A stretch of DNA of 62,815 nt, filler included. It is 9 parts of 9 records of this genome, joined end to end, with 100 filler letters (N's around TTAATTAATTAA, not from the genome) between each part and the next. Parts side by side here need not be neighbours in the genome. Positions count along the whole stretch, not along the records: positions 31,889 to 37,256 come from SRR7504441_3959; 8 more parts are not named here. The stretch is one strand, 5' to 3'. The translations under genes were made by a program, and so were the position numbers. Shown here piece after piece: positions 11,260 to 53,184 of the stretch (position 1 is the stretch's first letter; every line of letters begins with the position of its first letter). The notes under the pieces are model-generated. The model searched no databases and had not been told where the DNA came from. It was given only the letters and a program-made list of their open reading frames with translations.

Positions 11260-11357
11260 TGAGCTCACGCGATCCGTTGTTCGCCGGCGAGCTCGTCCAG
11301 TTTGATTCACCACGAGCAGCTGACAGGAGGCGCTGGCGTGACGGCAGCAGCGGTGCC

Positions 11358-14208
11358 ATGGAGGCTCAGATCCAGCAGTTGATCTGCCGGGCCACCGCCC
11401 CGCTCGAGGCCCGCATTGCCGCGCTCGAGACCGGGCGGCAGCTTCCGGAGACTGGCCGGTCTGACAGCCTGTTTGGGCTGGAGCGGCGACAGGCTGAGTG
11501 CGAGCAGAGGCTCGCCCGGCACGAGGCCGAGGCGGACGGGCTGGCCGGTGCCACCGCCGACCGGTTGGAAGCGCTGGAGGCCCGGCTGGCCGAGCTGGAT
11601 CGGGCCCAGCTGCGCGACCAGCCTGAGTTAGCGGAGGCGATCGGCCAGCTGCACGGGCGCATGTCTCAACTCGAGCTGACTGGGGCTGACGGGCTGCGCG
11701 AGTGCCAGCGGGCGCTCGGTCGGATCGCGGAGCACAACAGCAACGAGCTGTCGGCCGGGCTGGCGCGGATGGGCAGCCACGTGGCGCTTGAAGCTGACTC
11801 GCAGGCTGCGGTGCTCGAGGCGGCCAGTAGGAAGGCCAGTGAGGCGCTCGCGGTGGCCGGGTCGGCGAGCAGCGGCGTGGAGGCGGTGCAGCGGCACCTG
11901 GCGTCGCAGAGGGAGACAATTGAGAAGGTGCGAGCCGGCAGCGGCGGCGTGCGAGCGTCTCGTGTCAGGTGGCGACGGCTCTCCGCGCGTGCATTCTGCA
12001 TCATGTGGCCACCGAGGCGGCCGAGCGGGCGCAGGAGCACTCGGAGCTGGTCCGTTTGATCGAAGTGGCCAGCCCGGGGATGCTCAGTTTTGTAGAAGAT
12101 CTTGGATCCGGCGGCTCCTCGCTGGACGCAGTGCAGAATGCTGTGGCAGGAATCGCCGAGGCCACGTGCCAGCACCAGGTGGCGAGGCCAGGCCGCTGGG
12201 CCGACCGGGCCGGGCAGGAGCGACACCATCAGGCGGTGGAGGCACTGCAGGCGGGGGTGATCCGGATGGAGGATCGACTGGATAGGCTGGAGGCAGCCAG
12301 GCGAGTGGCCTCATAATGCTATGCTGAATCGCTAGTTAGCGTGGTATCGGGAGTAACAGGGCTGTGACAGGCTGCCGGCCAAGCCGGAGCGCGGGCTTGA
12401 GTTGACGGACAACCAGCTGGATAAGGCGGTAGAGAAGGCATTGAAGCGCGCTCTGCCCGACGATCAGACAGCCAAAGGATTGAGCAACAAGGAGTGGAAG
12501 CAGCAGCTGAACGCCTGGATGCTCGCCGTGCCAGCCGGCCAGTCGATGGTGTCGGCCGGCGGGCAGTGTTGGGAGACGGTACGGGACCAGTTGGACGCGA
12601 TCCAAGACGATCTCGAGTCTCAGCTCTCTCAGGTCAAGGAGAGCATCCAGCGTGTCAAGCATGAGAGAGTGTCCATGCACCGACAATGGAAATCCGAGGC
12701 CGATGCGCTCAAGCAGTCGGTGGCTGGCACAGAGAGCCGGATGGACACTCGCTGGAAGGCTGAACTTTCGGCACGCGAGCAGTGGCAAGCTGAAAGTCTC
12801 TCGGTGGCGGCCGAGGAGCGTGAGACTATCAAGCAGGTGAACCAACGACCGGACGGCGCAAGTAGAGCGGTTGGGGCAGGTGATGCAGCTTCTGGGCGCC
12901 CGGGTGAGCAAAGGATGCGAGCTACTCGAGCAGTTGGGCGGCGCCGGGCAGGGCTGGCTTCTGGCAAAGGCTGCATCCGGCCGGGCCAGGGCTGACAGCT
13001 GGGCAGATCAAGGAAGCGGAAGTCCGGTTGCAGCGCGTGGTAGACACGTCACTCGAGGCGTCCAGGCTGGAGCAGCAGGAGAGCCAAGCCGTGTGGAGCG
13101 GCAGACTCGAGTCTGCGATTGCTGAGGCAAATCCTGTAATGAGTCAGCTCGCGAGCAGAAGGCAGGTGTGTTTAAGTGCAGCCTCGGACCGGCCGATTCC
13201 CGAGGGCGAGGAGGAGGAGCTGGCCAGACACTTGTCAGAGCTGCGGCGGCAGTTGATGGAGCAGGCGCTGGCCGGAAGTTGCCGGCCTGATTCGAGATCA
13301 GGTGCGCCGTGAGTCGGAAGCCCGGTACAAAGAGACGGCGGCGCTGCACCGCATGGTCCAGGAGGCGGCTATCGCTGGCCAGGCGAGTGGGTGAGGGGAT
13401 GGGCTGAGCTAGGGCAGGTGAGCGAGGCCAAGGAGGCGAGCTGGCAGCAGCAGGTGGGACTGCTCGAGCAACAAACTGGGCGGCAAGCAGACGAGATCGA
13501 GAATCTCAAACGCGAACGAGTGCAGATGCATATGCAGTGCAGCAGACTGGGCGAGCGGGTCAGCCAGTCGCAGCAACAGGTGCCAGTGCCGGCAGCGCGC
13601 CTTCAGCACGAGGGGAAGGTGGCCCAAGCACTCAAGCAGGCGGAAGCCAACTGGAAAATCCAGCTTGGAGCTGTGAGCGATGCCTATGAAGGCAGCGAGA
13701 AGAGCCGGCTACTGCGGGTGCCGACGCAGACTAGGCAGAACTGAGGGTGTCCTAAGGGCGAAGCGAGTGAGTTCCAACGGAAGATTGGAAACGACCTGGC
13801 GATCTGCACAGCCAGGGCAGAGGCTGCGAGGTGCGCGGCGAGGGTTTGGGAGCTGACCATTGGTCAGCGATGAAGTGATACGAGTTGAAGCGGCCATGCG
13901 CGAACGCATCGACAACAATGTGAACGAATGGACGAGACTTTTCAAGCAGGTTGAATCTCGTGTGGCTGGGTTGAATGTCTGAGGGGGGCCGCAGCACCAA
14001 GAAGGTCAGCAAGGTCAGGCGGAGGCGGTGGTGGAGGCGACCGAGGAGCTGTGCGAGATGCAGGCAAGACTGCTTGGCTGCTTGATTGCATAGCATCAGT
14101 CCTGAGTGAGCTTTGGTTGAGTTTGGGTTGCAGTTGCTCATAGCCAACCTTGGAGTCCGGCTAGAGGAGCTCGAGGCTCGGATCTCGCAAGCAGTAGCTA
14201 AAAAGTAG
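11358..14208 (+). CDS. Long coiled-coil protein, multi-intron
   Basis: Successive E/Q/A/R-rich heptad ORF pieces separated by short GT..AG segments. Exon structure not fully resolved. Confidence 0.6.
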
Positions 14209-19688: not shown

Positions 19689-20900
19689 TCACAAGGGCTC
19701 GAGCTCGCCGCAATCGCGCACAATCACATTGGATATCAGCTGGCCATCCATCCGCGGCCACTTCTCCACGTCACGGAAGATGCCCATCCCCTCTACCACT
19801 CTGCCGAACGCCACATACTTGCGGTCACACCACGGCGCCGGCTGCATCAGCACAGCCCACTGGGAGTTGTTGGTCCCCGGGCCCTTGTTGACCATTGTGA
19901 GTATGCCAGAATCGTCATGTGGCACCTTGAAGTTCTCGTCCTCGAAATACCCGCCGTAGATCGACTCCCCCTCCGTCCCGTCGTTGTTCACAATGTCACC
20001 GCCTTCGAGGCTGAACCCCTCCTGGATCCGCAGGATCTTAGTGCCCTTGTAGTGCAGTGGCTTGCCATGAACCTTGCCCAGGCCCTTTTCGCCCGTGCAC
20101 AGTGCCCTGAAATTCTCGCAGGTCTTGGGCACCCGGTCGATGAACAGCTCGAACACCACCCGCCCGAGCACGATCTCGTTCCCCTCGTCGTCCGTGCAGT
20201 CCCGCGGGTCCAGCGATAGTTCGAAGAAACACCGAGGGTACCGCCAGCCGTTCGCCCCCTTGTACAGCCCCCCCTGCTCAAACATGGAAGCCACCATCTT
20301 CTGGTCCGCCGCCTTGGCCTCCTTCTCCTCGCCCCGCACCGCCTTGAGCAGCTTGACGATCGCCGCGTCGTTGGGGGCGTGCTTCAGCGCTTCCTTCAAG
20401 TCCTCGCGCGCCGCCGCAAACCGCTTCAGCCCGTGGTTGGCTTGCCCGCGCCGGTACAGCCCCTTCGGATGGTCCGGCTTGCACTTGAGGGCGGCGTTGC
20501 TCGCCACCAGCGCCACCTCGTAGTCGTTCTGCTTGAGGCCGCACATGGCGATGTTGAGCCAGCAGGCGGCCTGGGCCTCGTGAAGCTCGCTCACCATCTC
20601 GGGCGACACGTTCGGCGCCTCAGGCTTGAGCCTATCCGGGGCACTGGCCGCCTCGTCCGCCTCAGCCTGCGCCCGCTCGAACTCGAAGGTCACCTCGAGC
20701 GCATCCCGGTAGGTGGTCTCGGCCCGCTCGAACTCGCCGGACCGGAAGAGCGTGTTGCCCTCGGCCCGGAGCTGCTCGGTCCTGGCGAGCACCTGGGCCT
20801 GCTCGCCCATCGCCTGCGCCTGCTGGATCAGCTCCTGCCGCTCCAGCTCCAGCACTTTACGCTCCGTCTCCTCCCCGACGGCTTCCTCACCTTCAGCCAT
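19689..20900 (-). CDS. TPR + cyclophilin-type PPIase, intronless
   Basis: Three TPRs (EGNTLFR, LNIAMCGLK, KGLYRRGQA), then GRVVFELF..VPKTCENFRALCTGEKG, GESIYG, FEDENF and FGRVVEGM. Confidence 0.92.
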   Translation of the reverse strand: MAEGEEAVGEETERKVLELERQELIQQAQAMGEQAQVLARTEQLRAEGNTLFRSGEFERAETTYRDALEVTFEFERAQAEADEAASAPDRLKPEAPNVSPEMVSELHEAQAACWLNIAMCGLKQNDYEVALVASNAALKCKPDHPKGLYRRGQANHGLKRFAAAREDLKEALKHAPNDAAIVKLLKAVRGEEKEAKAADQKMVASMFEQGGLYKGANGWRYPRCFFELSLDPRDCTDDEGNEIVLGRVVFELFIDRVPKTCENFRALCTGEKGLGKVHGKPLHYKGTKILRIQEGFSLEGGDIVNNDGTEGESIYGGYFEDENFKVPHDDSGILTMVNKGPGTNNSQWAVLMQPAPWCDRKYVAFGRVVEGMGIFRDVEKWPRMDGQLISNVIVRDCGELEPL

Positions 20901-20967
20901 CGAGGGCCTTGAAATCGTAAGTCAAAGTCCGTTGTGATCTGCTGATCTTTGGCAGGGGGTTGCGGCC

Positions 20968-27112: not shown

Positions 27113-30100
27113 CTATGATCCCGAAGCTAGCTTATCTGCCTTTAGCTGCTTCAGCTCTAAAAATCCGACAACGTCATCAAATGTGACACCTTCGTCGCAA
27201 GCTAGCTTGCTAACGAGCGCCTCTACCTCCTCCTCAGCTTGTGCACCAGTCAGCCCCGTCTGTTGCGTGTAGATCCATTGTGCCAACTGGCGGAGCTCAC
27301 TGCTATTGAGCGCACCATCTGCGTTATTATCTAGCTGTTGAAACTTTGTGTGAGTCTCGGCCACGCTTTGGATCAGCTTGGTCGGGCTGCTGACCACCGG
27401 GGCGGCTTGCTCTTGCTGAGCCTGTCGGCGCGCAGTCTCTTTGTCCAGCTTTGCAAACCGGTCGTCCATAAACTCGGCAAACTCGTCGAAACTGATCTGT
27501 GCGTCGCTGTCTTTGTCCAGCTTGCGGACCAGCTTCTCGGCCTCGATCTGCCTTTGAGCCGGGTCGATCGGCTCATTCTTGGCGCTAAAACTGCTGTAGA
27601 GCAAGTCGACGAGTGCCCGGATCTCCTGGGTGCTCAGCTTGCCCGAATTGTCCACATCCAGCTCCATGAACTTCTGATACGCCCTCGATATCGGCTGGCT
27701 GCCCGAACTTCCTGAGACGTCCACTGGAGCGATCTCGGGCTGCTTGACCGAGGTGTGCACGGGCGAGATATGGTGGTCTTCGTTCAAATAATCGGTGTGC
27801 TTGTGCCCTTTCTTCCGTCGGTTGGCAGCCACCTTGGCCGCCTGGGACGCCCGCTTGACAAAAAATGCCTCAAATTCTTCGAAAATGATCTTGCCGTCGT
27901 TGTTCACGTCGAGCTTGTGCATCAGCTTACCTGCCTCGATCTTGACTTGATCATCGTCAAGCTGGTTATCTTTGGTCTGAAACGATTGGTAGATCCACAG
28001 CGCCATCTTTTCTGCCTCCTCTGTGTCCAGCCACCCGCTTCCGTCGGCATCCAACTGCTTGAACTTGCGCTCGGCAAGCGTCAGTGTGACTGCGGGCTGC
28101 GGTGCTGGCTCAAACTTGGCCTGGGCCGCGGCCAGCTGATCATACTGCTTGGCCTTCTCGCCAAAGTAGGCCACAAATTCGTCAAAGCTCACCTGGCTGT
28201 CGCCATCCAAGTCCATCTCCGCGAGCATCTTGCCAGTCTCTAGCTCCACTTGGGCTGCAGACAGCTCAAGCCCACCCGGCGCGAACCCTCCAAACACTCG
28301 CCGGCCGAGCTCGCACAATTCGTCGCCTTGGAGCTTGCCGGAGCTGTCCAAGTCGAGCTGTTCGAACATCAGCCGCACCTTGGTCGTGTCCAGCTCGGCG
28401 GCCTCGCGGCTCACAAATGCCTTGTACTCGGCGCTTCGCCGCATCAGCTGGTTGAACAGTGCCTCAAATGCTTCGAAGCTCAGCGCCTGCTCGCCAACCA
28501 GCCCAGCGATCATCCTGCTGTCCGCATCGGCCGCCTGGCTGCCCATCAGCTCGAGCAGCGCCTTGCTCAGCTGCTCCAGCTCGGCCCCGGCAAGCTCGTC
28601 TGACCGGTCTTGGTCCAGCTGGTTGAACAACTTGCGCGCTGCTGACAGCGCCGGCCCAGGGTCAACTGGCGGCGTGGTCTGCATGGCCGGAGCGGCTCGC
28701 TCTGCAGCAGCAGCCAGCGCTCTCGCGGCGAGCTGGTCCACCAGCCGGCGGTCATTGAAAAACCGCTCAAACTCGTCAAAGCAAATCTTCTTGTCACCGT
28801 TGGTGTCGATCTCGCCCACGAGCCGGTCCACCTCCGCTGCTGCCACTTGCGCTGGGGCCTCGCCAGTCTGGGAAACTGCCCAGCTGACCAGCTGCTCTAG
28901 CTCTGGCCCGGTCAGCTGGCCGTCCTTGTCGGCATCGAGTGAATCAAACACTTGGCGTGCCTCATTCAGAGGAAGCTTGGCTGCAGCAGCTGCCTTGGCC
29001 TGCTCCAGCTTGATCTTTTCAGCCAGCAGCAGCTGGATAGCATTGTCCAGCAGCAGCAAGCCCACCCCAGTCGGTTGGGCCGGGGGCTCGTTGTCTTTGA
29101 GCAAATCGTTCAGCAACAGCTCGCAGTCAGCCGCCTTCAGCTTGTCGTCAGCTTGGGGTCCCGCCATCAGCCCGACCAGCCACTCGGCGATCTGAGGCAG
29201 TTGGCTCGAGCTCAGCTCGGTCGCTTGGCCAGACAACTGGTCGAACTGGGCTCTGAGTGCCTTGGAGAGCACAGCACTGTTCTCAACCATCACTTCGAGC
29301 CTCCAGCTGACCATCTGCTCGGCAATAGCACCAAGCCGTTCAGTCACCGTGTGCGGCACCGCTGGTGCTGGTGCAGCAGTCTGCCTGTTGGCGGCGGCCA
29401 GCAGTTGGGCGAGCTGGGCGGACTCACGCATGAAGTACAGCTCGAACTCGTCCCAGCTTACCCTGCCGTCCCTGTCGGTGTCGAGCGCTCCAATCATCTT
29501 GCTCGTCTCTGCTGCCATCTGCGCCTCACTGAGCGGCTCTGCTGCCTGCCTTGCTGCCTGGCCGTGCAACCACTCGCTGAGCTCAGCCAGCTGCGATGGG
29601 CCGAGCGAGCCGGAGCCATCCAGGTCGAGCATCTCGAACACGGCCTTGGCATCGCTCTGGTCCACCCTGGCCAGCCCGGCCGCCCGCTGCATTGCCGCCA
29701 CCGTGCGCGCTTCGAACAGGAGCGGCCAAAGCTGCTCAAACTCAGCCCAGCTCATCCTATCAGGAGCCGCCCCAGCCAACACTGCAACTGCAGCTGGCAG
29801 ATCGCCAGACTCGAGGCACTGAGTCAGCACCAATTCCAGTGGCTTGTCCAACGGAATCCGGCCCACCAGCCCAGCTGGCTGGCTCTCTGCGGCCTGCCAC
29901 GCAGCTTTAGCTAGTTGCATCGCCTTGGGCAGCTCTGGAGGTGGCTCGGTTCGGAGCCCCGGCAGTGCTGCGGCTGCCTGCAGCATGCCCGCAAGTCTGT
30001 CGGCTGCAGGCGGCTCGAACAGCATCTGCCTGATCGCGTCGAGCAGCAGCGCAGAGCTCCGGTTCCACTTGGGTGCCGCCGCCTGCTCCTGCTCGGCCTC

Positions 30101-31788
30101 CTTCTGGGCCCCGTCACACTCGAGTGCCACTGTGGCCTCGGCCGCGCGCTCGTCTGGATCCTTGGCGGCCTCGGCCTGCGCAGCCACTAATCTGTCGGTC
30201 AGCTCCTGCAGCCGCGCCGAGCGCTCGCCAAACATCTTCTCAAACTCGTCGAAAGAGATCTTGCCATCGCTGTTCGTGTCAAACCGGCTGATCATGGCTT
30301 TGCTCTCGGCCTGCACAGCCGCCTGGTCTAGTGGCCCTCCGTCGACCTGCAACTGGCCGAAGAACCAGTGGCACATCTCGCCAAGCTCCTGCTCGCCCTC
30401 GAGAAACCCGGAAGAGTCCGCATCGAGCTCATCAAACTTGGCGCGCGCCTCAGACGGGGCCGAGAAGAAGCTGGCCGAGGCCGCGGCCACCTTCTTCTCG
30501 TATTCGAGCTGGTGCTGGTTGAGCTGCTGGTAGAAATGCTCAAACTCTGGGTAACTCACGCTCTCGGCCGGGAGCATCTGGCGCAGCTTGGACCCGTTCA
30601 GCCGGATGATCTGCTCCGCCGACTGTCCGGCGTCCTGCACACCGGCGAGCTTCTGAGAGAGCACAAACGAGACAAACTCGAACAATTTGTCGAGCTCGGC
30701 GCCCTCGAGCTTGTCGTTCTGGTCAGCGTCCAGCTCTAGCCACTTCTGCCGGACCGCTGATAGGACCTGCTCGGGCGGCGGGATGTCCACGATTGCAGGC
30801 GGGCTGGCCTTGAAGAACCCCTGGCTGGCCTGCTTCTGCCCGGCCAGCGCGGCCTCGATCTGGCCCAGCCGGCCGGCTTTCTCCTTGAAGAATCGCTCAA
30901 ACTCTCGGAACGAGATCTTGTTGTTGCCATCTGCGTCGATTGAACTCACAAGCTTGGCAGTCGCCCGCTCGAGCTCCTCTGGCGACAAGGGCTGCCCGCG
31001 CAGCTTGAGGCCCGCGAGCGCCCACTTGCCCAGCTCAGCCAGCTCGTCGCCGTCAATGTAGTGGGTCCGGTCCTGATCAAGCTGACTGAACTTCTCTTTG
31101 GCGGCCGACATGTCTGGAGGGTTGGCGGCCAGCTGCTGCTCGATCTGGAGATGCACCTGGAGCAGCTGGTCCCACAGCTTCTCAAACTCGCCCCAGCTCA
31201 GCTGCAACCCGCTCAGCAGCAACAGCCGGGCTGACTTGCCTTGTCCGTGGGCAGCTGCTGCATGATCGTGTGCGCGTCCTTGGTGACCTCCTGTTCAGCC
31301 AGCCCTGGTCGGGCCACCTGCCTGTGAGTGTCAGCTGCGCCCAACGGGGCCGAACGAGCCTTCCGGAGCACAAACTTGGCCATTTCGGCCAGCTCGCCGC
31401 CCTCGAGTGCGCCCGAGCCGTCCACATCCAGCTTGTTGAACTCGACTCGCGCCTCCGAGAGCACTTCCGGCGGGATGCTGACTGTGGCTGGGTCAAGCGA
31501 CGCGAGCACTGGCTCCGGGATCCCCTGCAGGATCACAGGTGAATCCGGCAGTGCCTTGCTGCGTACAGTGATATCGGCGATCTGAGATTCAATCTTCATG
31601 TGCTTGAGCCGATCAGCGATCTCTGCGAGCATGTTTGTCTTGTTCAGAAAGTACCTGCAGCCAATCAGCTGCGCCCGCGCGGTCGGCCACCGTTCAAACT
31701 CCTCAAACGAAATCTTCTTGTCCCCATCTGTATCCATCGCCTGCACCAGCCTGGCCCGCTATCAGTCACTCTCCAAGCTCAGGGCCAC
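27113..31788 (-). CDS. Very large multi-EF-hand protein, 5' truncated
   Basis: More than 1500 aa made of repeated modules KF..LD.D.SG.L...EL / D.N.DGKISFDEF, roughly 20 EF-hand-like loops. Confidence 0.88.
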
Positions 31789-31888: not shown

Positions 31889-34800
31889 GACTTCCAGGAG
31901 TGGTTCGTTCAAGATATCAACAAGCTGCTGGTCTCACACCCACCGGACAAGGTCGAAAAGTACAAGTTGCCAGACGGCACTGAAGCAAAAAGACCGTTCT
32001 GGACGCTCCCGAAGCGGCTGCCAGCAGCAATGCAGTTCGATCCATCGGATGAGATGTGCCAGAGCTTCATCTGGAGCGCTAGTCACCTGTATGCCAAGAT
32101 GTTTGGACTCGACATGGCCAACTGTCAGCCCCAGAGCCCAAATGATCCGGCCTCTGCAGCACAACTAGCCGCCGAATTTGATCGTGGCATGTTCGACGAG
32201 GAACCCCAGAGAACTCAAGACGAGCTCGTGAGAGAGCTGACTGAGGCGGCTGCGTCTAGCCAAATTGCGCTGGGCGAGGAAACGATGCTGTTCGAGGACG
32301 CATTCGAGAAGGATGACGATAGCAACTTCCATGTTGCCTTCATCACTGCAAGCTCCAATCTACGAGCTCGCTTGTACAAGATCAAGGAGGAAGATGCTTT
32401 CCAAACAAAGCTGATTTCTGGGAAGATCATTCCCGGTGCTGCTAGGTCTCTTGCTTTCTGATTGGGGCGGTCAGCCATCGCAACTACAACGTCTGTAGTC
32501 TCAGGGCTAGTTGTCATCGAACTGATCAAAATCGTCCAAGCCAGGTGACTAAGCTAAGCCTGTGCCGACAATACTTGGTTACAGGCAAAAGGACCAGATG
32601 CGTGATGCGAATGTGAACCTAGCGCTGCCGACTCTGATCCTGTTGGAGCCGGACAATCCGCGGAAGAATAAGCTCGGAAGCCTAGAGTTCACTGTCTGGG
32701 ACAAGATTGAACTCGAGGCCGGTCCAGGCATCACACTGCTACACCTGCTGCAAAGGTTGGCGGCCATGACTGGGCTCAAAGCAAGCGATGTGTATCGTCT
32801 TGAAACAGGCGACTGCGTATTCAAGGTCAACATTAGCTTCATTTCCTCGTGACTGTTGGCTTGTGGCAGGGTGGTACTCTTTACCAAGGTCTGCATGGCT
32901 GGAAGCTGGAGAAGACTGTGGCGGAACTGCTCGAGCTGGACCCGACCTCCACGGAGACTGTGGACCTGCGGGTGGTGTTCAAGACACCAGAGGGCGAAGA
33001 CGTGGAGCTGCCAGCAGACGTGGAGGCTCCACCGGTGCGGCTGGGGTTCCGCAGAGGTGGGTATGTTGTTTGTGGCGACCCTTGGAACGCGGACACCATA
33101 CCGATACTTTGTCTGCTGACCGAGGCCAAGATCGAGTATAAGCTCGAGCCTGCGCGCGCTGGCGGGCAAGTGGTCTTCCAGGATGCAGATTTCGAGGTCC
33201 ATGGATGCCAGGCGGCCATGAGGTATATTGCTGCCAAGCACGCACTGGACGACTTTTATCCTAGCGAACCAGTGCTCAGGGCCAAGGTGGACATGGCTAT
33301 GGAGTTCAGCCAGACCGTGCTTCAGCCGATGATCAAGCAGCTGCTTTTACCTGTTCTCGAACATGAAGGCCCCTCCCCATCGTGGGTGACCCAAAAGCAA
33401 TGGAATGCTGACAAGGAGGATCTATGCAAACAAATTGCCAATAGAGAGTGGCTGCCCTGGACCAGCGGCCAGCTGGTGACTGGACTGCCACACGCATCGC
33501 TCGGTGACATTACTCTTGCAATTCCCTTGGCGCTGTTTGAAATGATGCATCCGGCGCTCCCGGTGCTCGACTCGGATGAGCTCAGACAGTTCCTGGCTGC
33601 AACCCGTGCAGCATGTAAAAAGTGGATGCTCTACATGGCTCGTCCAAAGGTGGTTTACTCCGGATACGAGCTCAGCGTCCGGACAGACGACCGCTTACAG
33701 AAGATGGCTCTGCCGAGGGAGGCTACCGTTGCCCAGTTGATTGCCAAAGCCGAGGAGCTATCTGGCGTGCCTGCATCTCAGATTGCGATCAGGTGCGGAG
33801 GGTCACTCCCTGGGCGGCCTGTGGTCAACCTTATAGGCTTTGCTCACTGCCCTGCTACCGATCAATCGACGCTGCTCATGGACGCCGGAGTTGGCCCTAC
33901 TGATGTCGTTTTCGTGACCACCGCAGGGACAACCGATGGAGCTGCACCAACTGCTGTGCCGCATGTCTTACAAACAGGGTCGGGTCAACCACTACAGCGG
34001 CTCCCTACAGGGCAGCTGCAGTGTCCAGTATGTTTTAAATGGATGGCAGCTCATCTAGTCGCCACTCATGCCGAACAATGCGAGCCGGTCAACGAGCCAG
34101 TAGCCGCGCCACCTGGCGAGCTGACTCACGAGTCGGGTACAATTTCTGGAGCTGACGCAGAGGAACCTGTGGTATGCGTAGACGCACAGCTGCCAACAGC
34201 CCTGCTCCAGCGATCGTACACCTCGTACATGAAAGAGAAGATCTCTGAGGGCAAAATTTCGCAGGTTGTGCAAATTGACATGAAGAAGGCGGGGCATGTT
34301 TACTTCCGGGACTCCGACACAGACGCCCGGAACATCACTTATATCGCAAAGCATGTAGATCAGCTTCTCACTGGCCTGCCGCTTTCGCGGCATGGGTCAA
34401 TCTTCGTGGCCCAAGATAAGTCCAAGGAGCACTTTCTGAAGGCATTAATCATCGGACCAGTTGGCTCGCCGTACGAGAACGGTTGCTTTGAGTTTGACAT
34501 CATGATCCCGGTGCAGCCTGTGGCTGGTGCGGCCTGTGTCTAATAATACAGGGCAGGCTCAGTATCCCTCCAGTCCGCCCCTTGTGCAGCTCCGAACCAC
34601 CGCCCAGGGTGCTGTAAGGTTCAACGCCAATCTGTATGCCAACGGTAAGCTGCCGCAAGAATCGCGAGATGAGGCTTGCGTGTTTGTGTGCGCAGGGAAA
34701 GTCTGCCTATCATTGCTTGGCACCTGGTCTGGACCTGGGTGGGACAAAGAGAGATCGACGCTGCTCCAGGTGTTTTGTAGAACTGATGGTGGCCGAGGCG

Positions 34801-37146
34801 ATCCTGACTGAGGGCAGGTGGTTGAGAGTATACAACTCAACATTATGATCGGAGAACCAGTCTCGGAGCACCCCTGGTTCAACGAGCCTGGTTACTCCGA
34901 CAACGATTGCCCTGAACACAATGCCGCCAGTATGACAGCACACGGTATACTCTAGAGATTCATCTTCTTATTTCGCCCAAATTCGCAGGCAAGGCATGTA
35001 GCCAAGAGTACAATCGGCGGATGCGCAGATGCACTATGAAGGCAGCTATGATTGACATCCTCCGTTCGCCGCCAATGGGGTTTGAAGAGGTGCCATCGTG
35101 ATCTACACCGTGAATGACTGCTGGCTGTGAAGGTTATTTATGAGCACTTTCGCGCGCATGCCGACAGAATCATTTCTCAAGTACAAGGCTGGGAACGGGA
35201 AGGCGCCGAGGACTCGCCTGTACGTGCGATTATGGCCAAAGTAGGTCAGGCATCCACTTCTGAGCAGCTTACGACGGTGCTCATCGAAGCGACTGAAATA
35301 CTGAACCAGTTCGAGATCGCCGGAGGGGATGAGGCCACGAGAAATGCATTAAGACAGCAGATGGAGAACATCAAAGAGAAGATCAAGACTGTTGAGGCAG
35401 CGGAGGAGGTAGCTTTGATCGAGCAAGCCAAAACATTCAGAGAACGGGTTGAGGCACTTTCTACAGCACTGACCGGACTTGCTCCTGGCGATGACTTGCT
35501 TGGGAAGTTGTTCACTGCGCCTGGCGTGACTCCAGTTGCTGCTGTGACTGGCGACGCTGAGCCGTTGGACGACTCTGAGCCAGATGATGGGCCTGTGGCC
35601 GACCCAGAGCAGGTGGCTAGATTGTCTAGATAACCTTGGCTGGCATGCATCGATGCTAATGTCTGTAGGTGGCGCTAGTCCAGAGCTTCACGGGCAGCAA
35701 ATATAGCGACGAGGTGGTGGCCAGTCTGCTGCTCCATCACCCTGCCGGTGGGAACATCGAGCAAGTCACGAACTTGATCTTTGACGGGGTGGATCCAAAG
35801 CACTGGCTCGACATGGCGTCGGGTCTTGGCGGACAGGACAAAATCGACCCCAAGAATCGGATCGAGGAGTGGGTGTGCTTCTGCGGCCAGCTGCACTTGT
35901 TTTCTGAACTCCGGTATCCGGCCATCCCACAGTGCTGGCTGCCTAATAGCAGGGTTAGCCTTAGGATTCGCTGAGTACAGGCGCCAGGTGTCAGATTTGC
36001 CAACAGGAGCGCAAGCCAGATTCTCAAGTGATTGCTCGCCAGGCCCAGCCCAACGAGGTGGCTCGAATTCTGAATTCGGAGCTTGAGCCACTCAAGAAGG
36101 CGCTCGACTCGGCCGAGCACCTGCTCGAGATAGTCAACGGCTCCGGCACTGTGACAGCCAATACTTCATGGGAATTTCAGCCAGCAGGATATCATGCCTA
36201 TGGCGCTGCTGCCAATTGGTATGTCTTTTCTGGTGCAATGAATGACGCGCTTGAGGCTGCTTGGGTAGCGCTGCAGCAACCAGAAAGCGCAGCTCCCAAT
36301 AAAATTGAGATCACTTTGGACGATCAGCAGTACACCTGCGACCTCGTGGCTATGTCAATGAGCTCTGTCGCGGATGCACAATACACTTCTTTGGTAAGGA
36401 GGCGAAATTTAAGCAGCTGGGTGAGCGAGCTGATGGAGAGGGCCAAGGTCTCCAAGGAGCAGGTGACTCTCCTCCACCAGCAGCTGAAAGACAAGAGAGA
36501 TGAGAAAGCTGCCGCAGCAACCGAAGCAGAACAGGCCGCGCTACAACTGACTGATGGGTGGCCGATTTGTCCGCAATGCACCTTCCGGAATGCAGAGGAT
36601 GCGGCCAAGTGTAATATCTGTGGGTATCAACCTATGGGGATCGAAACGAAACCACCAGTAACTTGCCCCTCCTGTGGGTACATACCGGATCCAACTCACC
36701 CGAGCTACAATCCAGATGCGACACATTGCTTCAACTGCGGGATTGCGCTGGCCACCGATGGCCAGTGGTCATGCCCCTCGTGCGGAGTTTTGTGCCCCGA
36801 GACCGCACAGTCTTGCTCGCAGTGTTACAGTGTCAATCCGAGCCATCCAGCAGCATTATGGGTGCACGGGATGGACGCGCAGGCATTCCAGCCTGGCCAT
36901 GATCCGTATCACAGCTACTCAGGCTCCTCTGTGGAACAAAGAGCCAACCAAGCTGTTGATGCACAAGGGCCGTACATTCCAGAGACTGTCAGCACAAAGG
37001 AGCTCGCAACAGAGCTCACCGAGATACTAGTTGGGCTGAAGGAAGGGAGACGACCAGAGCGTTCAAACGAGAATCAAGCAGTGCCACCACCGCACTCAGG
37101 CTATGATGCACATGAAGCTAATATGTCAGATTTCGATGATTACTAG
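31889..37146 (+). CDS. UBA6-like E1 - GST-like - UBL - UBZ - BIRC6-type E2 - UBA-like - ZnF - WWE - RanBP2/NZF fusion protein, 5' truncated (1590 aa visible)
   Basis: Removing 10 GT-AG introns (32436-32474, 32545-32584, 32826-32869, 34511-34556, 34645-34695, 34770-34817, 34945-34988, 35090-35132, 35613-35668, 35914-35987) gives one open frame of 4773 nt ending in TAG. E1 motif [10 protein letters not shown]...KIIPAIATTT; E2 motif [20 protein letters not shown]. Confidence 0.88.
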
Positions 37147-37356
37147 ATTATGGCTGCGTATACCATTAATTAATTACATGCGCAAATATTTTATTTGACT
37201 AGTTTTATTTTAATTAGTCTTTAGGATCTTAGGTTAGGTTAGGTATAATAGATGAGNNNNNNNNNNNNNNNNNNNNNNNNNNNNNNNNNNNNNNNNNNNN
37301 TTAATTAATTAANNNNNNNNNNNNNNNNNNNNNNNNNNNNNNNNNNNNNNNNNNNN

Positions 37357-39831
37357 AAGTCGAAGGACAGGATCTGCGCCAAGTGCGGGGAAGCGATCGC
37401 GGACTATGACGAGAACGGCAAGCTGGACTGGACCACCGACGCCAAGGGCAACCAGTTCCACGACCGATGCTTTGCGTGTGAGGTGTGCCGTCTGCCGATC
37501 AAACACGTGGGGGACGGCAAGTACATCAATGACAAGGAGGGCAAGCCGTATTGCCACGGGTGCTACGAAAAGACCTTCTGCGACCCGTGCTTCTGCTGTG
37601 GACTGCCGCTGGTGAACGAGCAGGTTGTGCTGTGGAAGACCAAGAAGTTCCACGTGCCGTGCTGGAAGTGCACCGAGTGCAGCAGCGTGCTCTCCACGCC
37701 AGAGAACCCGGATGCACCGATGGCTCGCGAGAACGAAGCCGGGAAACCGATCTGTGACAACTGCTGGAGCGGCCAGAAGTTCCAACGGTGCTTCAAGTGC
37801 TCGGAGCTGATAGATGGCGAGGAAGGGCCGACTTGCCTCTACACGAATGCCTACTATGAGAAATGCCAGCCGTGCCTCAATCAGGTGGTCCACCGGCTGG
37901 AAGCGCCGGACTGCGTGCTCCCGCAGGGCGCGTATCCGTTCCATGGCGACTGTGCGCTGTGCTACATTTGCCGGGTCGAGTTCACAGACGAGTCTGACCC
38001 CGGCTCGCTCTGTGTGCTAGAGGACGGCTCCGGGCCATTCTGCACCAAGCACGCCACCCCCGAGGCCCAGGCTAAGTGGACCGCCTTGGACTGTGTTCGC
38101 CGCAAACTGCAGCATATTCGCTTCCGAGGAGTGCTGTCTGAGGCAGCCAAGGGAGGCGGGAGCAAGGAGATGCAAGCGGGTGCTACTCGCGGGATTGTCA
38201 TGAAGGAGTTTTACCAGACCGAGGTGTACTATTTACAGCAGCTCAACATCCTGCTCCAGGGGTACCTGGTGCCATTCCGCGACCGTGGCGACTACGTGAT
38301 GGTAGAACGGCGCTCGGACTCACTCCACATTCAGGGCCGGGGACCCGGGGACGGAGTCAAAGCAGCGGAGGAGTTTTTAGAGTTTCTTCGCGTGGCAAAG
38401 AGACTGATTGAAAGCCACGAGAGTCTGGCCGAACAGCTGCGAGTGGCTGTGGAGGCAATGATTGGCGAGGATTCTGATTTATCTTCGGTGATATGCAAGG
38501 CCGCAGACATCGTACGTGAGGGATATCCATTCTTTCTCAGTCGGCTTGGAGTGGTACAAGCCAACATCGGGTTCCAGAGGCGTAAGAATCAAGCCTTCAA
38601 GAAGGTGTCGCCCCTGTGTGAAGTGGGCAGCTAGGGTTGACTGCTGGGCCATGCAGGCGTATGACGAGATCTCGAGGGAGCCGTACATGCACGATGGCGA
38701 GCCAGTCAAGAAGCAGTCCTTTCAATCGTATGCGATTGCGCCACTGCAGGTTTGTGCATTGTATGCAAAGCGACCAACGCTGATTCTTTCTGTGTTCAGC
38801 GGGCAGTGAACTACAAAGCATTTGCCGACCGGCTGCTCAAGAACACATCAAAGAGCCACGTCCGGTACAAGGCAATGCAAGAGGCTGCACAAATGATTGA
38901 CGCAGCCAACCAACAAATGGACAGGCGGTCAGTCGAGTACGATAAGCTGGTCAAATTCCAGAAATCCATCGAGGTCGGATGGGGAGGCCGCTACTGCAAC
39001 TTCCTCTCTCTTGATCGATCAATTGTCAAGCAAGGATTTGTGAGGCTTCTGCAGGGTGTTGGTGAAGACCTTGTACACCTGAGCCTCATGACGGACCTAC
39101 TTGTCATACTGACTCCATATGGCAAAAACGCTGGATACCCGACCTACACTGTCAAATGTGATGTGAATGGCCAGGCTGACTATGACAGAATCCAGGAGCC
39201 CTGCTTCTGCGAAATTAAGAAGAACCAGCTGAGTATTTATACCCAAGAGGGAGCTAGTCAGCCAATCGACGCAGCCAGACCGCTGATGCCTGATCAGGTG
39301 GAACTCACCGACGATGGCAGAATCTGCGTTGACCCCAGGACCACGGCGGGCGCAGTGTATCTGAGCCACGAGCGTGTTGACCAGATGCTTGAGTTGTTCT
39401 GCTGGATGCAGGCGTCGATAAAGGCGCACGAGGCCACCCAAGCTGAGAGCAAAAAGCAGGGCTGGTACACTTACCTCTATGACTTGAAACTGGCAGAAAT
39501 CAGCCTGAAATGCATAAAGGACAGCCAGGGCAAGTCCTCAATCCTGGACATGGAAGTCCAAAGAGAGGAAGAACCACTCACTCCCAAGCAGGTCAAGAGC
39601 ATGCCTCCCGATGCTGTCGTCGATCACTTTGAGATTCTGGCTGAGCTGCTGCATTTCCCAGCAGTGACGCTAAACATGGGTGTGGAGCAAAAGAGAAAAA
39701 TGCTCGCTGCAAATATTGGGGTGGCGAGATCTCGGAAGATGCCAAATTTGGTGCTGCAATTTCAACATCATGAAGCTGAGAAGTGGCTCGAGATGTTTAC
39801 GCAGGTGGGGATGGATGTGCCCAAGCGATAA
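37357..39831 (+). CDS. Multi-LIM + DH(RhoGEF)-PH protein, 5' truncated
   Basis: About four LIM-type Cys/His repeats (CAKC..FHDRCFACEVC..YCHGCY), DH motifs EFYQTEVYYLQQL and IAPLQ|RAVNY..LLKNT, then PH-like strands. Confidence 0.8.
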
Positions 39832-45843: not shown

Positions 45844-47262
45844 TTATAAGTTGCACATGCAGATAATCCGTGTCGGTCCTATCTCATCATAGGCAGTCAA
45901 AGGCATCCACATGTTGTCCAAGGCTGAAAGTCCGGCCAAGAGAGATCCCCCGGTCCAGGCCGCAGGTTGCACCGTATTGCATCTTGTATCGCACCATTTG
46001 TTGATACTAGGCAAGTGATACGAGTGCTTGGTTGGCACATGTTCAGCCACCTGCCGCCACAAGTGGCCGTCGAGCCCGCGAGCTGGACTCTCATGAGACT
46101 CTCGAGCCATGAGGCACGTATATAAGTGATCCCGCCAGCTTGGGGCGGGCTGCAGTAGGCTCGAGACACGCAACATCTCTGGCGTGATGCTATTGGGCAG
46201 CCGCGGGTAGCCACTCGGGGCAGCAATCTCGCTCTGAAGCCGCTCGGCCACGTTGGGGAACCCAGAGCCACCTCCAAGCAAGAGTACGTTCTGACATACC
46301 TGGTGCAAGATGTCGCTGTCCGTGGAGCGGAGGGCCAGTAGTGACTTCCTCGCAAGCTCGTCGACGGAGGGGTGGTACCACTTGTCGCTGTGCATATGGT
46401 ACCAGCCAACCGAGTGCTTATTGAACAAGATCTCGGCGCATTGGATCAGCTCCTGGCCTAGCAAGATCTCAGTCTGGTCAGGCAGAACCAGCTTCTTGGC
46501 CGACGGATGCTCGGTATTGGTGCGCTGATCCTCGCTCATCTGAGCAAATTCCGCCTCGAAGTCAAGAGCGACAAAGCACCACTCTTCCTTAATCCGCCGC
46601 ATAAGCTGGCGATTAGCGCCTGAGCAGCCGTAATCAAACCCGCGACGCTGCGACCCGACGATCTTCCAAAGATGTTCCTCCATCGCCCCGACCGGCTCCG
46701 AGTCCGAACTCTCGTACGTGTGTGCCAGAGAGTAGCCGTCCCAGACCGCTTCGCACTGTGTGACCCCCCCGCCCAGCTCGACTGCCAGGCCAGTGGTCCG
46801 GCCGGCCGCGTAGCAGCCCAGCACGAGGTCGTTGGCCAGAAAGCAGCGCGGTACGCAATGGGTTTCGAACAGCACTTGCGCTTTCCGTGATCGCTCTTCC
46901 TGGCTCCTCTGCGGCTTCTCTGCCAGAACTACGCCCGCCTGGCCGGGCTCCACCCGCAGTTCCGCGTAGAGCACGTGCTCCCATATCTTTTCTAGGTCCT
47001 CCCAGTCCTGGATGTACCCGTTAGCCAGAGGCCTCCGGAGCCACAGATCCGGCCGGGACTGCGCTGCCAGTCCTATGTACGCACCCTCGGGCGATAATGC
47101 CGGGTGTCGCGGGCGGCCGACCACTGTGTCGAAGCAGACCGTCGGCTGGGCCTCCCCCGCGAGCCCAGCCTTGAGCATTACGGTGCCACAGTCCAGGCAC
47201 ACGGTCGGCCAATCCCCGACCACCAGAGGCAGCGCCGCCACACCGCCCTGGGGGGACTCCAT
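45844..47262 (-). CDS. Divergent actin-related protein, intronless
   Basis: LDCGT..KAGLAGE, VVGRPRH, WEDLEKIWEH, GRTTGL, IKEEWCFVALDFEAE, LPDQ, GGGSGFP and AWTGGS. Confidence 0.9.
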   Translation of the reverse strand: MESPQGGVAALPLVVGDWPTVCLDCGTVMLKAGLAGEAQPTVCFDTVVGRPRHPALSPEGAYIGLAAQSRPDLWLRRPLANGYIQDWEDLEKIWEHVLYAELRVEPGQAGVVLAEKPQRSQEERSRKAQVLFETHCVPRCFLANDLVLGCYAAGRTTGLAVELGGGVTQCEAVWDGYSLAHTYESSDSEPVGAMEEHLWKIVGSQRRGFDYGCSGANRQLMRRIKEEWCFVALDFEAEFAQMSEDQRTNTEHPSAKKLVLPDQTEILLGQELIQCAEILFNKHSVGWYHMHSDKWYHPSVDELARKSLLALRSTDSDILHQVCQNVLLLGGGSGFPNVAERLQSEIAAPSGYPRLPNSITPEMLRVSSLLQPAPSWRDHLYTCLMARESHESPARGLDGHLWRQVAEHVPTKHSYHLPSINKWCDTRCNTVQPAAWTGGSLLAGLSALDNMWMPLTAYDEIGPTRIICMCNL

Positions 47263-47329
47263 GGCCCGCACTTGCACTGTCACCACTCACCGGGGAGATG
47301 TCCAAGATGCCGTTGGAGCTCTCAGTCAG

Positions 47330-49375: not shown

Positions 49376-49475
49376 NNNNNNNNNNNNNNNNNNNNNNNNN
49401 NNNNNNNNNNNNNNNNNNNTTAATTAATTAANNNNNNNNNNNNNNNNNNNNNNNNNNNNNNNNNNNNNNNNNNNN

Positions 49476-52400
49476 TTGGTTTTGATTTGGTCCAGAGACC
49501 CACAGCACTGACGCTATTGCACGGGCCACAAGGAATGGTGAATGCGGAATGATAAAACCGCTGAGCTGTGATGCAGTAAACACTCCCATGTCTGTTGAAC
49601 TGACCGTTGCAGGTGCCAGCCCACCATTTGTCAACGCTCGCAGGGAAGTGTCGAGTAGAAACTGAACATGCATGTCGAATTGATGAGCCTTATCAGCGGC
49701 GAAACCACCATGCTCGTGAGCCAAACCATGCTGCAGCTTCTCTCCAAGGAAATACCCAGCTTGTACTTCTGCAGGCATGTTGGCAGTAACACATTGCACA
49801 CGCCACCGGTAGGGGGGCATATGCCTACCACCACCGGGGGGGCAGCGACCAACCAAGAGAGTTGACCATAGCATGTCTGGCGACTGAGTACCGCCAGCAA
49901 GGCTGCACCCCATGCCCGATACTCTGATCACCAGGTGATCCCGCGGGGCCAGTGCATTCTCCAGCTGCTCTTTACCACCTCGCTGCCCCCGGTCGTGCGC
50001 TTTTGCACCATTGCCAATTGATACTTGGGATACAATAAAGGCTGCTAGCTCTGAGACAGTAGAGTGCTCCAGAAATAGGACGGCAGACAGTTTGACGGCA
50101 GAAATCCCCAGGGCACGCTTGAGCGCTTTAGATAACGAGGTGACAGCTTTGGCAGCTTTAATTGAGTCGATTCCAGCAGACAATAGCGAGTCCTCTGCTG
50201 TCAAAGCCATATTCCCAGTGATTTGTTGCACCTCCTGTAGGGCGACTTGCTCGACGATTCTTTGTATGATTCCACACTTGTGCGTGCTGGTGGACTCAAG
50301 AGAGTCCAGCTGCGTTTGAGAACTGTCTGTTCTCTGGAGAGCTGGAGTTCGCTCTCCTGCGTGACTGATCACCGGGTCTCTGATCACATCTATATTACTC
50401 AGGTCCTTCCACAAACGGTCGACCTCTGACGTTATCCAGGCGGTCAAAGAGCCGGCCATGTGGTCCTCCGGAATGGAATGGCTGAGTACATTGAATGCAA
50501 TGTAGTGTGCACTTTCCCTGGGCTGACTCAGCTTCATGGTCTCCGAAAGGCTGTGTCGTGTCCGGGACGGCTGCGCCAACTTCAGTAACTCAGAATACCA
50601 GAGCTCGCTTGGACCTTCAAAAATGCATGTGATGCGCAGCGTGTTCACAAGATCGCCAAAACTCTCACCACTGAACTCGTCTTCAGTGCCGGCAAGTGCT
50701 GTTGTGTCCAGTGTCATTTCCAATTCCTCTGCGAGTTCTAGTGCATAGTCTGGAAAGAGAACCTTGATGGCGATACAAACTTGCATGTCAACTGGATCTG
50801 CCGCCGAAGACTCTGGTTCTACAACAGCGTCGAGCAGGCCAAGACCGTAATGGACAAAGTTGCGGCAGGCTTGAAGTGTCAATTTATGCTGGTCTTCCTT
50901 GCGAGTCTCTACAAGGCTGCACAACCGGTCAAGAATACCCAGTGTACTGACAGCAATACCCAATCTCGTAACGTTCATAGTTTGTAGTGCGACCTCGAAG
51001 GACCTTGTCCCCCAGTTGAAGACCACAGGGACGTTCTTGAACGTAACCTGTGCGAACGGTGTCTTGCGCAATCCCAGCGTGGACCACCGGCGATCCACCG
51101 TAACACCCTTTGACCTCCCATCCACGAGAACTAGCCTCCATTCGTTGTTTTCATCGAATGCTGAAACTACGTACCAGTCTACGGGCAGTCCATCGCCGTA
51201 TTTTGCTAGGCCGCAGCCAAATCCTCCCCAGTATTTTGTCCCAGACAGCTGCCGATCTTTAATCCTCGCATGGATGCTCTTCATGGCGCTTCCAGGGGTC
51301 TCCTCTACTAGCATGTAAGAGCCTAAAACTCTGTCTTTAGCGAAATCAGCACACAGGCACTGTTGCTGCTCTACGAACATCAGAGGTATGCGGCTGAGTG
51401 TATTTTGATATCCTACCATCTGTGCAAAGTCAGTATCCTGCTGAATGAGCGCATATACAACACGGAAGAACTGCCTAAGACTGCAATGCCTGTTGTACAG
51501 CAGCCCTAAGCAGCTGGAGCTCGTTCGAACGCTGTCAAGGCATCGCTGCCACTGCGCTGGGCTGGGGGTCTCGTTGTAACTTTTCAGGGTGGGGATGATG
51601 CCTGGCGATGTGTCTGAGATGACCTGTGTCCCAATTCGACAATACTCTGTCACCAGACTGCTCTCTGGCGAACCCACCGACGTTGTAATTCCAAGAGATT
51701 TAAGCCACTGGCCGCGGTTCCACTGCAGCAATGCCTGGCTGCGTAGAAATGATAGCATGTCGGCGTCATTCGCCACAAATTCGGCCACCCTCAAGATTGC
51801 AACTGTGCTTCCTGAGGTAGACTGGCACTTATCCACAGACTGGATCGGGCCTGATGCGCCAAGCCCATCTGCTAACCATTCAGGCTCCACGTCGGCGGCC
51901 ATCTTTCTGGATCTAACCATCGGATCTTCGAGTCTCCGCACCCGCTCTAAGTTGCCAGCGTGCTGAGAGTACTTGCTCTCTTTGTTGACTCGCCGTGACC
52001 CGAAAAAGTTAGACCCGCGACGTATCAGGGAGATTGACAGCTCGAATAGCGCGTGCACCCACGCCAGATGCTGCGCCGGAGACAGACTGGGTAAGTCTGT
52101 GCCGGCAGATCGCTTGAGCAGTCGGTGAAACAGCCGAACCAAGGTTTGCAGTTGTGCTGAAAATAACCTGAACTGGCTGACTTGGTTGAGCGCTTGATCT
52201 GGCATTACCTTTCGTGTAGGGGCCCACTCCAACAGGTCCGCCTGGAAGCCTTGGACAATGTCCATTGCCATAAAAACATGCTGTAGGTTCGGATCTCGAG
52301 AGTCCAAATGGTGCTGTGGTGCAATTGCAAAGCACGTGGCTTGTTGCTCGTCGCATTGGGCGTATTCGGCGTTCACAGCTGTTGCAGACAGTGCATCTAC

Positions 52401-53084
52401 TTTGTCCTCTCTTAACCTGGACGCCAGCACATGCAGCAGTGCTGGCGTATCGTCGCTGCTTAGAGCCGCAACCCAACCTGCAACGCGCCCGAACATCCAA
52501 TCTGAGTTTTCAGTGCCAGCTGCAGCTGCCTGTTGCTGCTGCTTCCCAAGCCAATCCAAGAAGCCTTGCTTGCAGGCATTCCGCCTGATCTTGCCGCTGG
52601 TGGTCTTGGGAATCGTGCGCTGCTTCAGCAGTAATATACTGTGGCATCGCAACTGGTTATCACTCGAAATGGTGGTCTGGACTGAAGTCATGATCTGCTC
52701 GAGCTCCGATTCGCTGTGTTTACCTCTGACCTCGGCCACCAGCACCAGCATCTCCTCACCTGCAACGTCCACGCTGAACGCCGCTGAGCAGCCGGGCCGT
52801 AGATTCGAGTTGCTCTCAGCGGAATGCTCGATGTCTTGCGGATAGATGTTTCGGCCACAAATGATGATCAGATCTTTCAGCCGGCTGCACACGTACAGCT
52901 CACCCTGGTGGATGAAACCGAGGTCGCCCGTGCGCAAGTACTCGATGCTGGTCGGGTCGCCCTGAATGGTGGCCTGGAAGGTGTCTCTGGTGAGTTCGTC
53001 CCTGCCCCAGTAGCCCTGCGCCTTGCTCGGGCTTGATAAACAGATCTCGCCCAAGTATTGATCCGGTTGCCGGACTAGCTGGCC
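49476..53084 (-). CDS. Type I PKS-like megasynthase fragment: FAAL - acyl-CoA dehydrogenase-like - ACP - KS (both ends truncated)
   Basis: One ORF spans the contig. FAAL: GYWG, LRTGDLGF, RLKDLII.GRNIYPQDIE, IPKTTSGKIRR. ACAD: LSGTKYW, TLGLR, VTFKNV, RLGIA, IFEG. ACP: GIDSI. KS: VSGMGC.LAGG...LW. Confidence 0.85.
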
Positions 53085-53184
53085 NNNNNNNNNNNNNNNN
53101 NNNNNNNNNNNNNNNNNNNNNNNNNNNNTTAATTAATTAANNNNNNNNNNNNNNNNNNNNNNNNNNNNNNNNNNNNNNNNNNNN

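Follow-up and report, generated by a model that had tools for sequence, protein, structure and literature searches.

A conserved fusion of an E1 and a BIRC6-class E2 in one polypeptide, encoded on a contig of probable marine protist origin

The ubiquitin cascade is taught as a series of separate E1, E2 and E3 proteins. In animals, UBA6 and BIRC6 are a separate dedicated E1 and a giant E2/E3 hybrid, whereas the family described in this study is one polypeptide. The E3-independent E2/E3 hybrids UBE2O and BIRC6 also differ from it, as they carry no E1 and need a separate UBA1 or UBA6. Bacterial Cap2 of CBASS likewise combines an E2 with an adenylation domain of the E1 type in a single chain, but is small, has neither SCCH nor UFD, and conjugates a CD-NTase rather than ubiquitin. 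Cap2 is the only E1-E2 fusion named in the available portion of a 2025 review of E1 enzymes in the Journal of Biological Chemistry (PMC12355090), and the E1 and E2 families are described, in an excerpt of Grau-Bové 2014 (PMC4327156), as using exclusive accessory domains. Here we analysed a stretch of DNA of 62,815 bases (the window), on which a gene at 31889-37146 (+) encodes an E1 followed by an E2 in one polypeptide. The fusion gene is real and conserved, and its architecture and both catalytic cysteines are present in full-length relatives. Our literature search found no described eukaryotic E1-E2 fusion, only bacterial ones of the Cap2/CBASS or Bil type, the 2008-2009 surveys (Burroughs, Michelle), where an earlier mention is possible, lying outside the search. 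A natural fusion is likewise not mentioned in the excerpts of the UBA6-BIRC6 structure papers (PMC12999496, PMC13623948). Public sequence collections already contain the fused proteins, most of them without a name or simply as "ubiquitin-activating enzyme E1".

The window is made up of nine contigs joined by eight artificial spacers (N44-TTAATTAATTAA-N44, within 14617-57303), and because these are separate contigs the genes on either side of a spacer are not genomic neighbours. The E1-E2 gene sits on the contig 31889-37256. Since this is a contig of its own between spacers, the contig edge beyond which the initial annotation had placed the adenylation domain and the E1 catalytic Cys is real; it cuts the 5' end of the gene inside the SCCH domain, and full-length relatives keep both of these elements. 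The missing N-terminal half of the E1 is encoded on none of the other eight contigs of the window. The gene model was obtained by frame-to-frame reading, tblastn with the relative P0001 and explicit junction tests, and it has 10 introns, all GT-AG and 39-74 nt long; its product has the same length as the spliced protein predicted before. Residues 2-1590 of this product align with residues 673-2282 of P0001 in a single BLASTP alignment (1634 columns, 53.1% identity). The gene and its parts are:

31889-37146 (+): 5'-truncated gene, 11 exons, 1590 amino acids (GT-AG junction tests, tblastn with P0001, BLASTP)
31889-32435, 32475-32544, 32585-32825, 32870-34510, 34557-34644, 34696-34769 (+): exons 1-6
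34818-34944, 34989-35089, 35133-35612, 35669-35913, 35988-37146 (+): exons 7-11
31892-32410 (+): E1 SCCH domain, C-terminal three quarters (PF10585 UBA_E1_SCCH, 119.5 bits, E 3e-34)
32411-32544 (+): return segment (GKIIPAIATTTS...) of the active adenylation domain; intron 32436-32474 lies within it
32697-33049 (+): E1 ubiquitin-fold domain (UFD), split by intron 32826-32869, collinear with P0001 911-999
32870-34510 (+): exon 4, coding without a break from the UFD into the N-terminal section of the UBC (open frame, junctions, BIRC6 match)
33059-33658 (+): GST-fold domain (predicted structure, pLDDT about 70-86, exon-4 residues 64-263; Foldseek)
33665-33922 (+): ubiquitin-like (UBL, beta-grasp) domain (strand-strand-helix-strand-strand in the model, pLDDT 66-85; fold read from the model)
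34022-34081 (+): tentative UBZ-like CCHC zinc finger, C-x2-C-x11-H-x3-C (alignment; two strands then a helix in the model)
34208-35195 (+): UBC (E2) domain with BIRC6-type N- and C-terminal extensions (BIRC6 match; alignment)
34704-34706 (+): E2 catalytic Cys codon TGC (aligned with BIRC6 C4666)
35196-35913 (+): helical/acidic spacer, conserved helical region and first half of a small Cys-rich ribbon (alignment)
36151-36438 (+): WWE domain (Foldseek against the PDB; Pfam below cut-off in the window)
36565-36830 (+): zinc ribbons of RanBP2 / double-zinc-ribbon type (PF12773 DZR, 33.3 bits, cut-off 27.3)
37132-37143 (+): conserved C-terminal F-D-D-Y (alignment)
37144-37146 (+): stop codon TAG

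The join between the two enzymes lies in exon 4. This exon is enclosed by the open frame 32837-34543 (568 codons), and its acceptor (32869/32870) and donor (34510/34511) are those GT-AG sites that preserve the reading frame and match P0001, in agreement with the uninterrupted exon called in the initial annotation. Exon 4 starts at the last ~60 residues of the UFD, passes the canonical end point of an E1, i.e., the last UFD strand PPVRLGF (33029-33049), and enters the UBC without a stop; within the exon the open frame goes on for 1461 bases beyond that strand, and the final 67 residues (481-547) match the BIRC6 UBC at E 8e-10. The stand-alone E1s P0159 and P0160, as well as the reverse-order proteins described below, terminate just after the equivalent strand. 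Because the end of the E1 and the start of the UBC share exon 4, the join is independent of the intron calls, and the earlier claim that both enzymes lie in one polypeptide is borne out by the open exon and by the same order in P0001, P0153 and P0396. The E1 and UBC motifs quoted at that time are all present, and the E2 catalytic Cys is intact, as had been stated.

A chimeric join had been considered from the outset, and the contigs from four public runs that could be aligned to the gene were short (61-441 bases); they showed no joints, and they left 33321-34036 uncovered. With run contigs this short and that interval uncovered, it is the open exon and the relatives that argue against chimerism. 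The metatranscriptome contig X5 covers 33119-33290 in exon 4 and is too short to serve as evidence of transcription or splicing. In the contigs of other metagenome runs 23 variant sites were recorded, comprising 15 synonymous, 4 non-synonymous and 4 intronic ones, and the sole 1-base insertion, at 34523, is intronic. The excess of synonymous over non-synonymous variants (15 versus 4) counts as evidence of selection and speaks for a genuine gene.

The same architecture was found elsewhere in P0001, P0153, P0013 and P0396. P0001 is a transcriptome open reading frame (ORF) of 2282 amino acids from another organism; it is collinear with the whole gene of the window and contains ThiF, FCCH, 4HB, SCCH, UFD, UQ_con (residues 1475-1580) and WWE. 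P0153, of 2596 amino acids, comes from Incisomonas marina and shows ThiF, then SCCH, then UQ_con, as P0001 does, and its cluster mate P0013, with the E1-then-UBC order, is encoded on a 337-kb contig. P0396 (2345 amino acids) shows two ThiF stretches, FCCH, 4HB, SCCH and UQ_con, and P0277, P0002 and P0012 are truncated members of the E1-then-UBC family. Counting both domain orders, the E1 Cys motif was found in all 37 fused proteins examined and the E2 Cys motif in 36 of them, the exception being P0277, which ends before it. The glycine-rich nucleotide-binding loop and the adenylation motifs are kept in P0001 and P0153. The nearest named relative of the gene's organism is the stramenopile Incisomonas marina, and the public runs that have sequence words in common with the contig are metagenomes of marine or aquatic origin. 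Another E2 fusion of the ubiquitin system was seen in P0047 (941 amino acids), in which a Ufd2 (E4) core is joined to a UBC of the same class.

For the E1 part, the SCCH match on exon 1 covers profile positions 78-254 of 254, and it is partial because the contig begins inside the domain. The return segment of the adenylation domain aligns with a stretch of P0001 inside its ThiF match (residues 410-891). P0001 911-999 matches PF09358 (UFD) at 26.0 bits, with a cut-off of 25, and no Pfam UFD match was reached by the window's own gene pieces. The two ThiF lobes, the ATP motif and the E1 catalytic Cys fall beyond the contig start and are present in P0001, P0153 and P0396.

The initial annotation had placed this E1 closer to UBA6 than to UBA1, and this was not borne out. 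In a phmmer search of the PDB, P0001 scored 504 bits with S. pombe Uba1, 492 with human UBA1, 490 with UBA6 and 389 with UBA7, so that the first three tie. Three unrooted E1 trees were built with 50, 50 and 35 rows, 46 of the 50 rows of the first being picked for names and diversity from 120 listed ones. In all three the fused E1s and the stand-alone E1s P0158-P0160 form one clade (100% SH-aLRT), which stands outside both the UBA6-named and the UBA1 groups. Neither the best score nor the clade placement fits a UBA6 orthologue, and the label 'UBA6-like' is not established for the window E1 on these sequence comparisons. Because the trees are unrooted and have no outgroup, they do not give the side of the fused-E1 clade, be it the UBA6 side or a third paralogue. 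The branch leading to the E1 of P0153 (Incisomonas) is very long, at 1.9-2.2 changes per column. Since the E1 is not within UBA6, the analogy with the animal UBA6-BIRC6 pair holds by E2 class only.

As compared to the E1, the class of the E2 is clearer. The UBC segment of P0001 scores 171.8 bits with BIRC6, 104.5 with UBE2Z, 93.1 with UBE2O and 44 with the next best E2, which supports the earlier assignment of the window UBC to the BIRC6/UBE2Z/UBE2O class, with BIRC6 as the closest member. The P0001-BIRC6 alignment spans 225 residues including the N- and C-terminal extensions, and the UBCs of the window and P0001 are 80% identical over 217 columns; UQ_con is matched in P0001 at 65.6 bits. In the window the UBC is interrupted by introns 34511-34556, 34645-34695, 34770-34817, 34945-34988 and 35090-35132, the part beyond exon 4 lying in exons 5-9, and its core retains the catalytic Cys as well as the Asn belonging to the HPN-type motif. 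The BIRC6 residues are numbered (C4666, W4673) as in the text available of PMC12999496. The five-residue 'insertion loop' of BIRC6, reported to clash with UBA1 in the available part of PMC13623948, is aligned without a gap in the P0001 UBC, and the Trp at Cys+7 (BIRC6 W4673) is conserved there; compared with BIRC6, the blocking loop lacks 3 residues. Pfam detects a BIR domain in neither P0001 nor the gene pieces of the window, and in P0001 it detects none of the large N-terminal body of BIRC6. For the UBC tree (88 rows), the candidates were 144 proteins (P0008-P0151), 12 more and the window, retained if their alignment to the P0001 UBC exceeded 150 residues, and P0001 itself was added; only BIRC6 rows are named among its references, none being named as UBE2Z or UBE2O. 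The window, P0001, P0278, P0153, P0013 and P0008 form a clade (99% SH-aLRT) outside the 96%-supported set that holds trematode BIRC6. With no BIR domain and a UBC outside that set, the protein does not appear as a BIRC6 orthologue.

Between UFD and UBC lies a linker of ~425 residues, which the initial annotation had passed over together with the WWE/zinc-ribbon tail and the reverse-order family, while its E1 and UBC stood. The linker appears to be folded, with GST-like, UBL and UBZ-like parts. The structure model of exon 4 is of moderate confidence (mean pLDDT 60). For 33059-33658, Foldseek against the PDB gave 355 matches at E<=1e-3 (best E 1.2e-6, TM (target) about 0.6), and all those listed are GSTs; the GST sequence matches of exon 4 are weak (E 0.05-0.9). 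The position of the GST catalytic Ser, read from the alignment, differs among the window, P0001, P0002 and P0012, and since it appears not to be conserved among these relatives the GST-fold domain is probably a binding module. In the region of the UBL, P0001 1223-1265 gives a near-threshold OTU1_UBXL match (21.8 bits, cut-off 22.7), and no diglycine or other obvious cleavage motif was seen after the UBL in the alignment. The CCHC pattern of the putative finger is aligned in the window, P0001 and P0002, with a similar pattern further downstream in P0153; its resemblance to UBZ is weak (WRNIP1 UBZ, 3vhs, at E 0.56). Pfam searches on single exons gave no GST, UBL, UBZ or UBA match, and because these searches fell short the GST and WWE assignments rest on structure models.

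In the C-terminal tail, region 35196-35913 has no Pfam match, and its Cys-rich ribbon (W-x-C-x-C ... C-x2-C) straddles the intron 35914-35987. A UBA-like domain suspected at 35669-35800 was unsupported and was dropped. The model of exon 11 has moderate confidence (mean pLDDT 54), and its best Foldseek matches are the WWE domains of TRIP12, HUWE1 and RNF146 (E 7e-4 to 9e-3, TM (target) 0.70-0.79). Pfam WWE reaches 22.1 bits in P0001 and 17.1 bits in the window, below the cut-off of 21.1. WWE domains of known proteins bind ADP-ribose or poly(ADP-ribose). The zinc-ribbon region also matches PF00641 at 17.9 bits, under the cut-off of 27, and its cysteines are kept in P0001. All three E1-then-E2 proteins with a complete C-terminus (the window product, P0001 and P0153) end in FDDY, and a Q-G-P-Y-I-P motif is conserved at a distance upstream of this end.

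A second family, commoner than the first, joins the same two enzyme classes in the opposite order. A search of long proteins with the E1 core of P0001 gave 352 matches at E<=1e-20, and domains were counted in the 120 listed; among these, UQ_con occurs in at least 33 long E1s, 2 of the window type and 31 of the reverse order. The reverse-order proteins have a BIRC6-like region and a UBC, after which comes a complete E1 with its usual C-terminal end, as checked by Pfam coordinates in P0305 and P0375. P0375 comes from the ciliate Platyophrya macrostoma, and many others are encoded on environmental contigs. The first 580 residues of P0305 align with BIRC6 4163-4781 (283 bits), and its E1 scores 794 bits with UBA6 versus about 730 with UBA1. 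Both families carry both catalytic Cys motifs. The reverse-order E1s form their own clade (100%), which in unrooted trees lies on the window clade's side of the branch with 97% (LG+G4) or 94% (PMSF) support. Unlike the window family, they have the opposite domain order and stop at the normal E1 C-terminus, their UBCs fall in a different UBC clade, next to trematode BIRC6, and they show no match to the linker or tail of the window family.

Compared with the animal UBA6-BIRC6 pair, the window family shares the BIRC6-type extensions of the UBC, the insertion loop of equal length and the Trp at Cys+7, and its E1 has canonical SCCH and UFD. In solved complexes, according to the accessible parts of PMC12999496 and PMC13623948, it is the SCCH and UFD of UBA6 that recognise BIRC6. 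The family differs from the animal pair in that its E1 is not nested in the UBA6 clade, it has no BIR domain and its blocking loop is shorter. Like UBE2O and BIRC6, it has the same class of UBC within a large multidomain protein with candidate substrate-binding modules, whereas the accessory domains of those hybrids are unlike its GST-like, UBL, UBZ-like, WWE and zinc-ribbon parts. The PADLOC E1-E2 models reach at most 44 bits with P0001, covering only the nucleotide-binding adenylation part (residues 393-584), and give no match to the window's own exons; a relationship to Cap2 was rejected, as the profiles fail to cover both the E2 and the E1 parts. Predicted Uba1-GST proteins of Pezizomycotina resemble the window family in having a GST directly after the UFD (P0299: UFD 938-1028, GST 1082-1309); they differ in that there is no UBC and the GST is clearly omega-type by Pfam, and they may be merged models of neighbouring genes. 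GST Pfam domains occur in at least 48 long E1s among the 120 matches listed, e.g., P0299 and P0285.

Based on these results, we consider it probable that the locus is a genuine nuclear gene of a marine protist for a giant single-chain E1-E2 enzyme. The predicted order of its parts is a canonical E1 with two lobes (adenylation domains, FCCH, 4HB, SCCH, UFD), then GST-fold, UBL, UBZ-like, UBC and WWE/zinc-ribbon tail. The E1 part would adenylate ubiquitin or a close ubiquitin-like protein and form the E1 thioester; the UBC, tethered by ~425 residues, would dock on its own UFD and SCCH, like BIRC6 on UBA6, and would be charged through the thioester of its own chain (in cis) or of the other chain in a dimer. 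The UBC would then modify substrates directly, like the E2/E3 hybrids BIRC6 and UBE2O, and these substrates may be recruited by the WWE and zinc ribbons of the tail and by the UBZ-like, UBL and GST-like modules of the linker. We infer that charging in cis would be insulated from other pathways and E3-independent, and a functional pairing of E1 and E2 is argued from their recurrent fusion in two opposite orders. A complex prediction for the P0001 UFD (905-1012) and the P0001 UBC (1425-1660) scored 0.00 and gave no verdict.

Several points weigh against this interpretation. The adenylation domain and the E1 Cys are absent from the window, and because of this the activity of this copy's E1 rests on the relatives. 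The E1 trees do not nest the fused E1 within UBA6, and the stand-alone E1s P0158-P0160 fall in the fused-E1 clade, so that fusion is not obligatory for this E1 type. P0008 (1072 amino acids) is a UBC-plus-tail protein of the window clade that carries no E1; it may represent a true split form, or just one exon predicted from a metagenome contig. Support for UBZ and UBL is weak, the splice model is a prediction from genomic sequence, and sequence is also what cis transfer, independence of an E3 and the nature of the modifier are deduced from.

The strongest alternative, which we regard as unlikely and yet worth taking seriously, is that the fusion is real and serves co-expression, stoichiometry or localisation, the E2 being charged in trans, by another chain or by UBA1, or the chain being cleaved. 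The ~425-residue linker does contain folded domains including a GST fold, GST folds often dimerise, stand-alone E1s occur within the fused-E1 clade, and P0008 may be a UBC-plus-tail protein that stands alone; however, no obvious cleavage motif was seen after the internal UBL, the window and P0001 share the domain order and the linker domains at 53% identity, and two independent domain orders exist. It is improbable that one of the enzyme modules is a non-catalytic pseudo-enzyme, e.g., an E1 remnant acting as a docking scaffold for the UBC. Such a remnant would be compatible with an E1 catalytic half that lies outside the window and with the very long E1 branch of P0153, but the E1 Cys motif is kept in 37 of 37 fused proteins, P0001 and P0153 retain the nucleotide loop and adenylation motifs, and the SCCH of the window scores 119.5 bits. 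An artefact of the join, whether from a chimeric contig or from a wrong gene model in which adjacent E1 and E2 genes were merged, is the least credible: the assembly is of metagenome type and the public contigs are short, none lying over 33321-34036, but the join is within one open exon that has no stop, three independent transcriptome ORFs (P0001, P0153 and P0396) and the 337-kb contig, from other organisms, have the same order, and the whole gene is collinear with P0001.

If the single-chain E1-E2 enzyme is accepted, a conserved eukaryotic fusion of a full canonical E1 and a BIRC6-class E2 would offer a natural tethered transfer complex for structural and kinetic work, and it would test how specificity and the release of product work between an E1 and an E2 that cannot come apart, a matter that bears on the UBA6-BIRC6 studies of 2025-26. 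The occurrence of fusions in both orders is independent evolutionary evidence for a dedicated E1 of this E2 class, and the WWE and zinc ribbons of the tail hint at a possible connection with ADP-ribose signalling in protists. It is conceivable, though we lean against it, that protists welded a canonical E1 to a BIRC6-class E2 at least twice, in opposite orders, and that the window form is a self-charging one-chain E1-E2-E3 machine choosing its targets by WWE, UBZ-like and zinc-ribbon modules. Were this true, it would constitute a private ubiquitin channel, possibly ADP-ribose-guided, that bypasses the shared E1 pool, and the fusions would act as a 'Rosetta stone' indicating a dedicated pairing of E1 and BIRC6-type E2 that is much more ancient and widespread than the UBA6-BIRC6 pair of animals.

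Across the window, where the G+C content is 52-65%, the other contigs carry several further genes. On the contig preceding that of the E1-E2 gene, an open frame of 1393 codons at 27113-31294 (-) consists almost entirely of EF-hand pairs (EF-hand_7, 299.9 bits, 7 stretches). Another open frame, of 1234 codons at 49428-53132 (-), encodes a phosphopantetheine-binding domain and then the start of a ketoacyl synthase, and is a polyketide or fatty-acid synthase fragment running off the contig edge. Ordinary eukaryotic genes found elsewhere in the window include actin at 45844-47286 (-), a Ras/Roc GTPase at 10444-11964 (-), a TPR-cyclophilin at 19689-20921 (-) and a LIM-domain protein at 37357-38634 (+).

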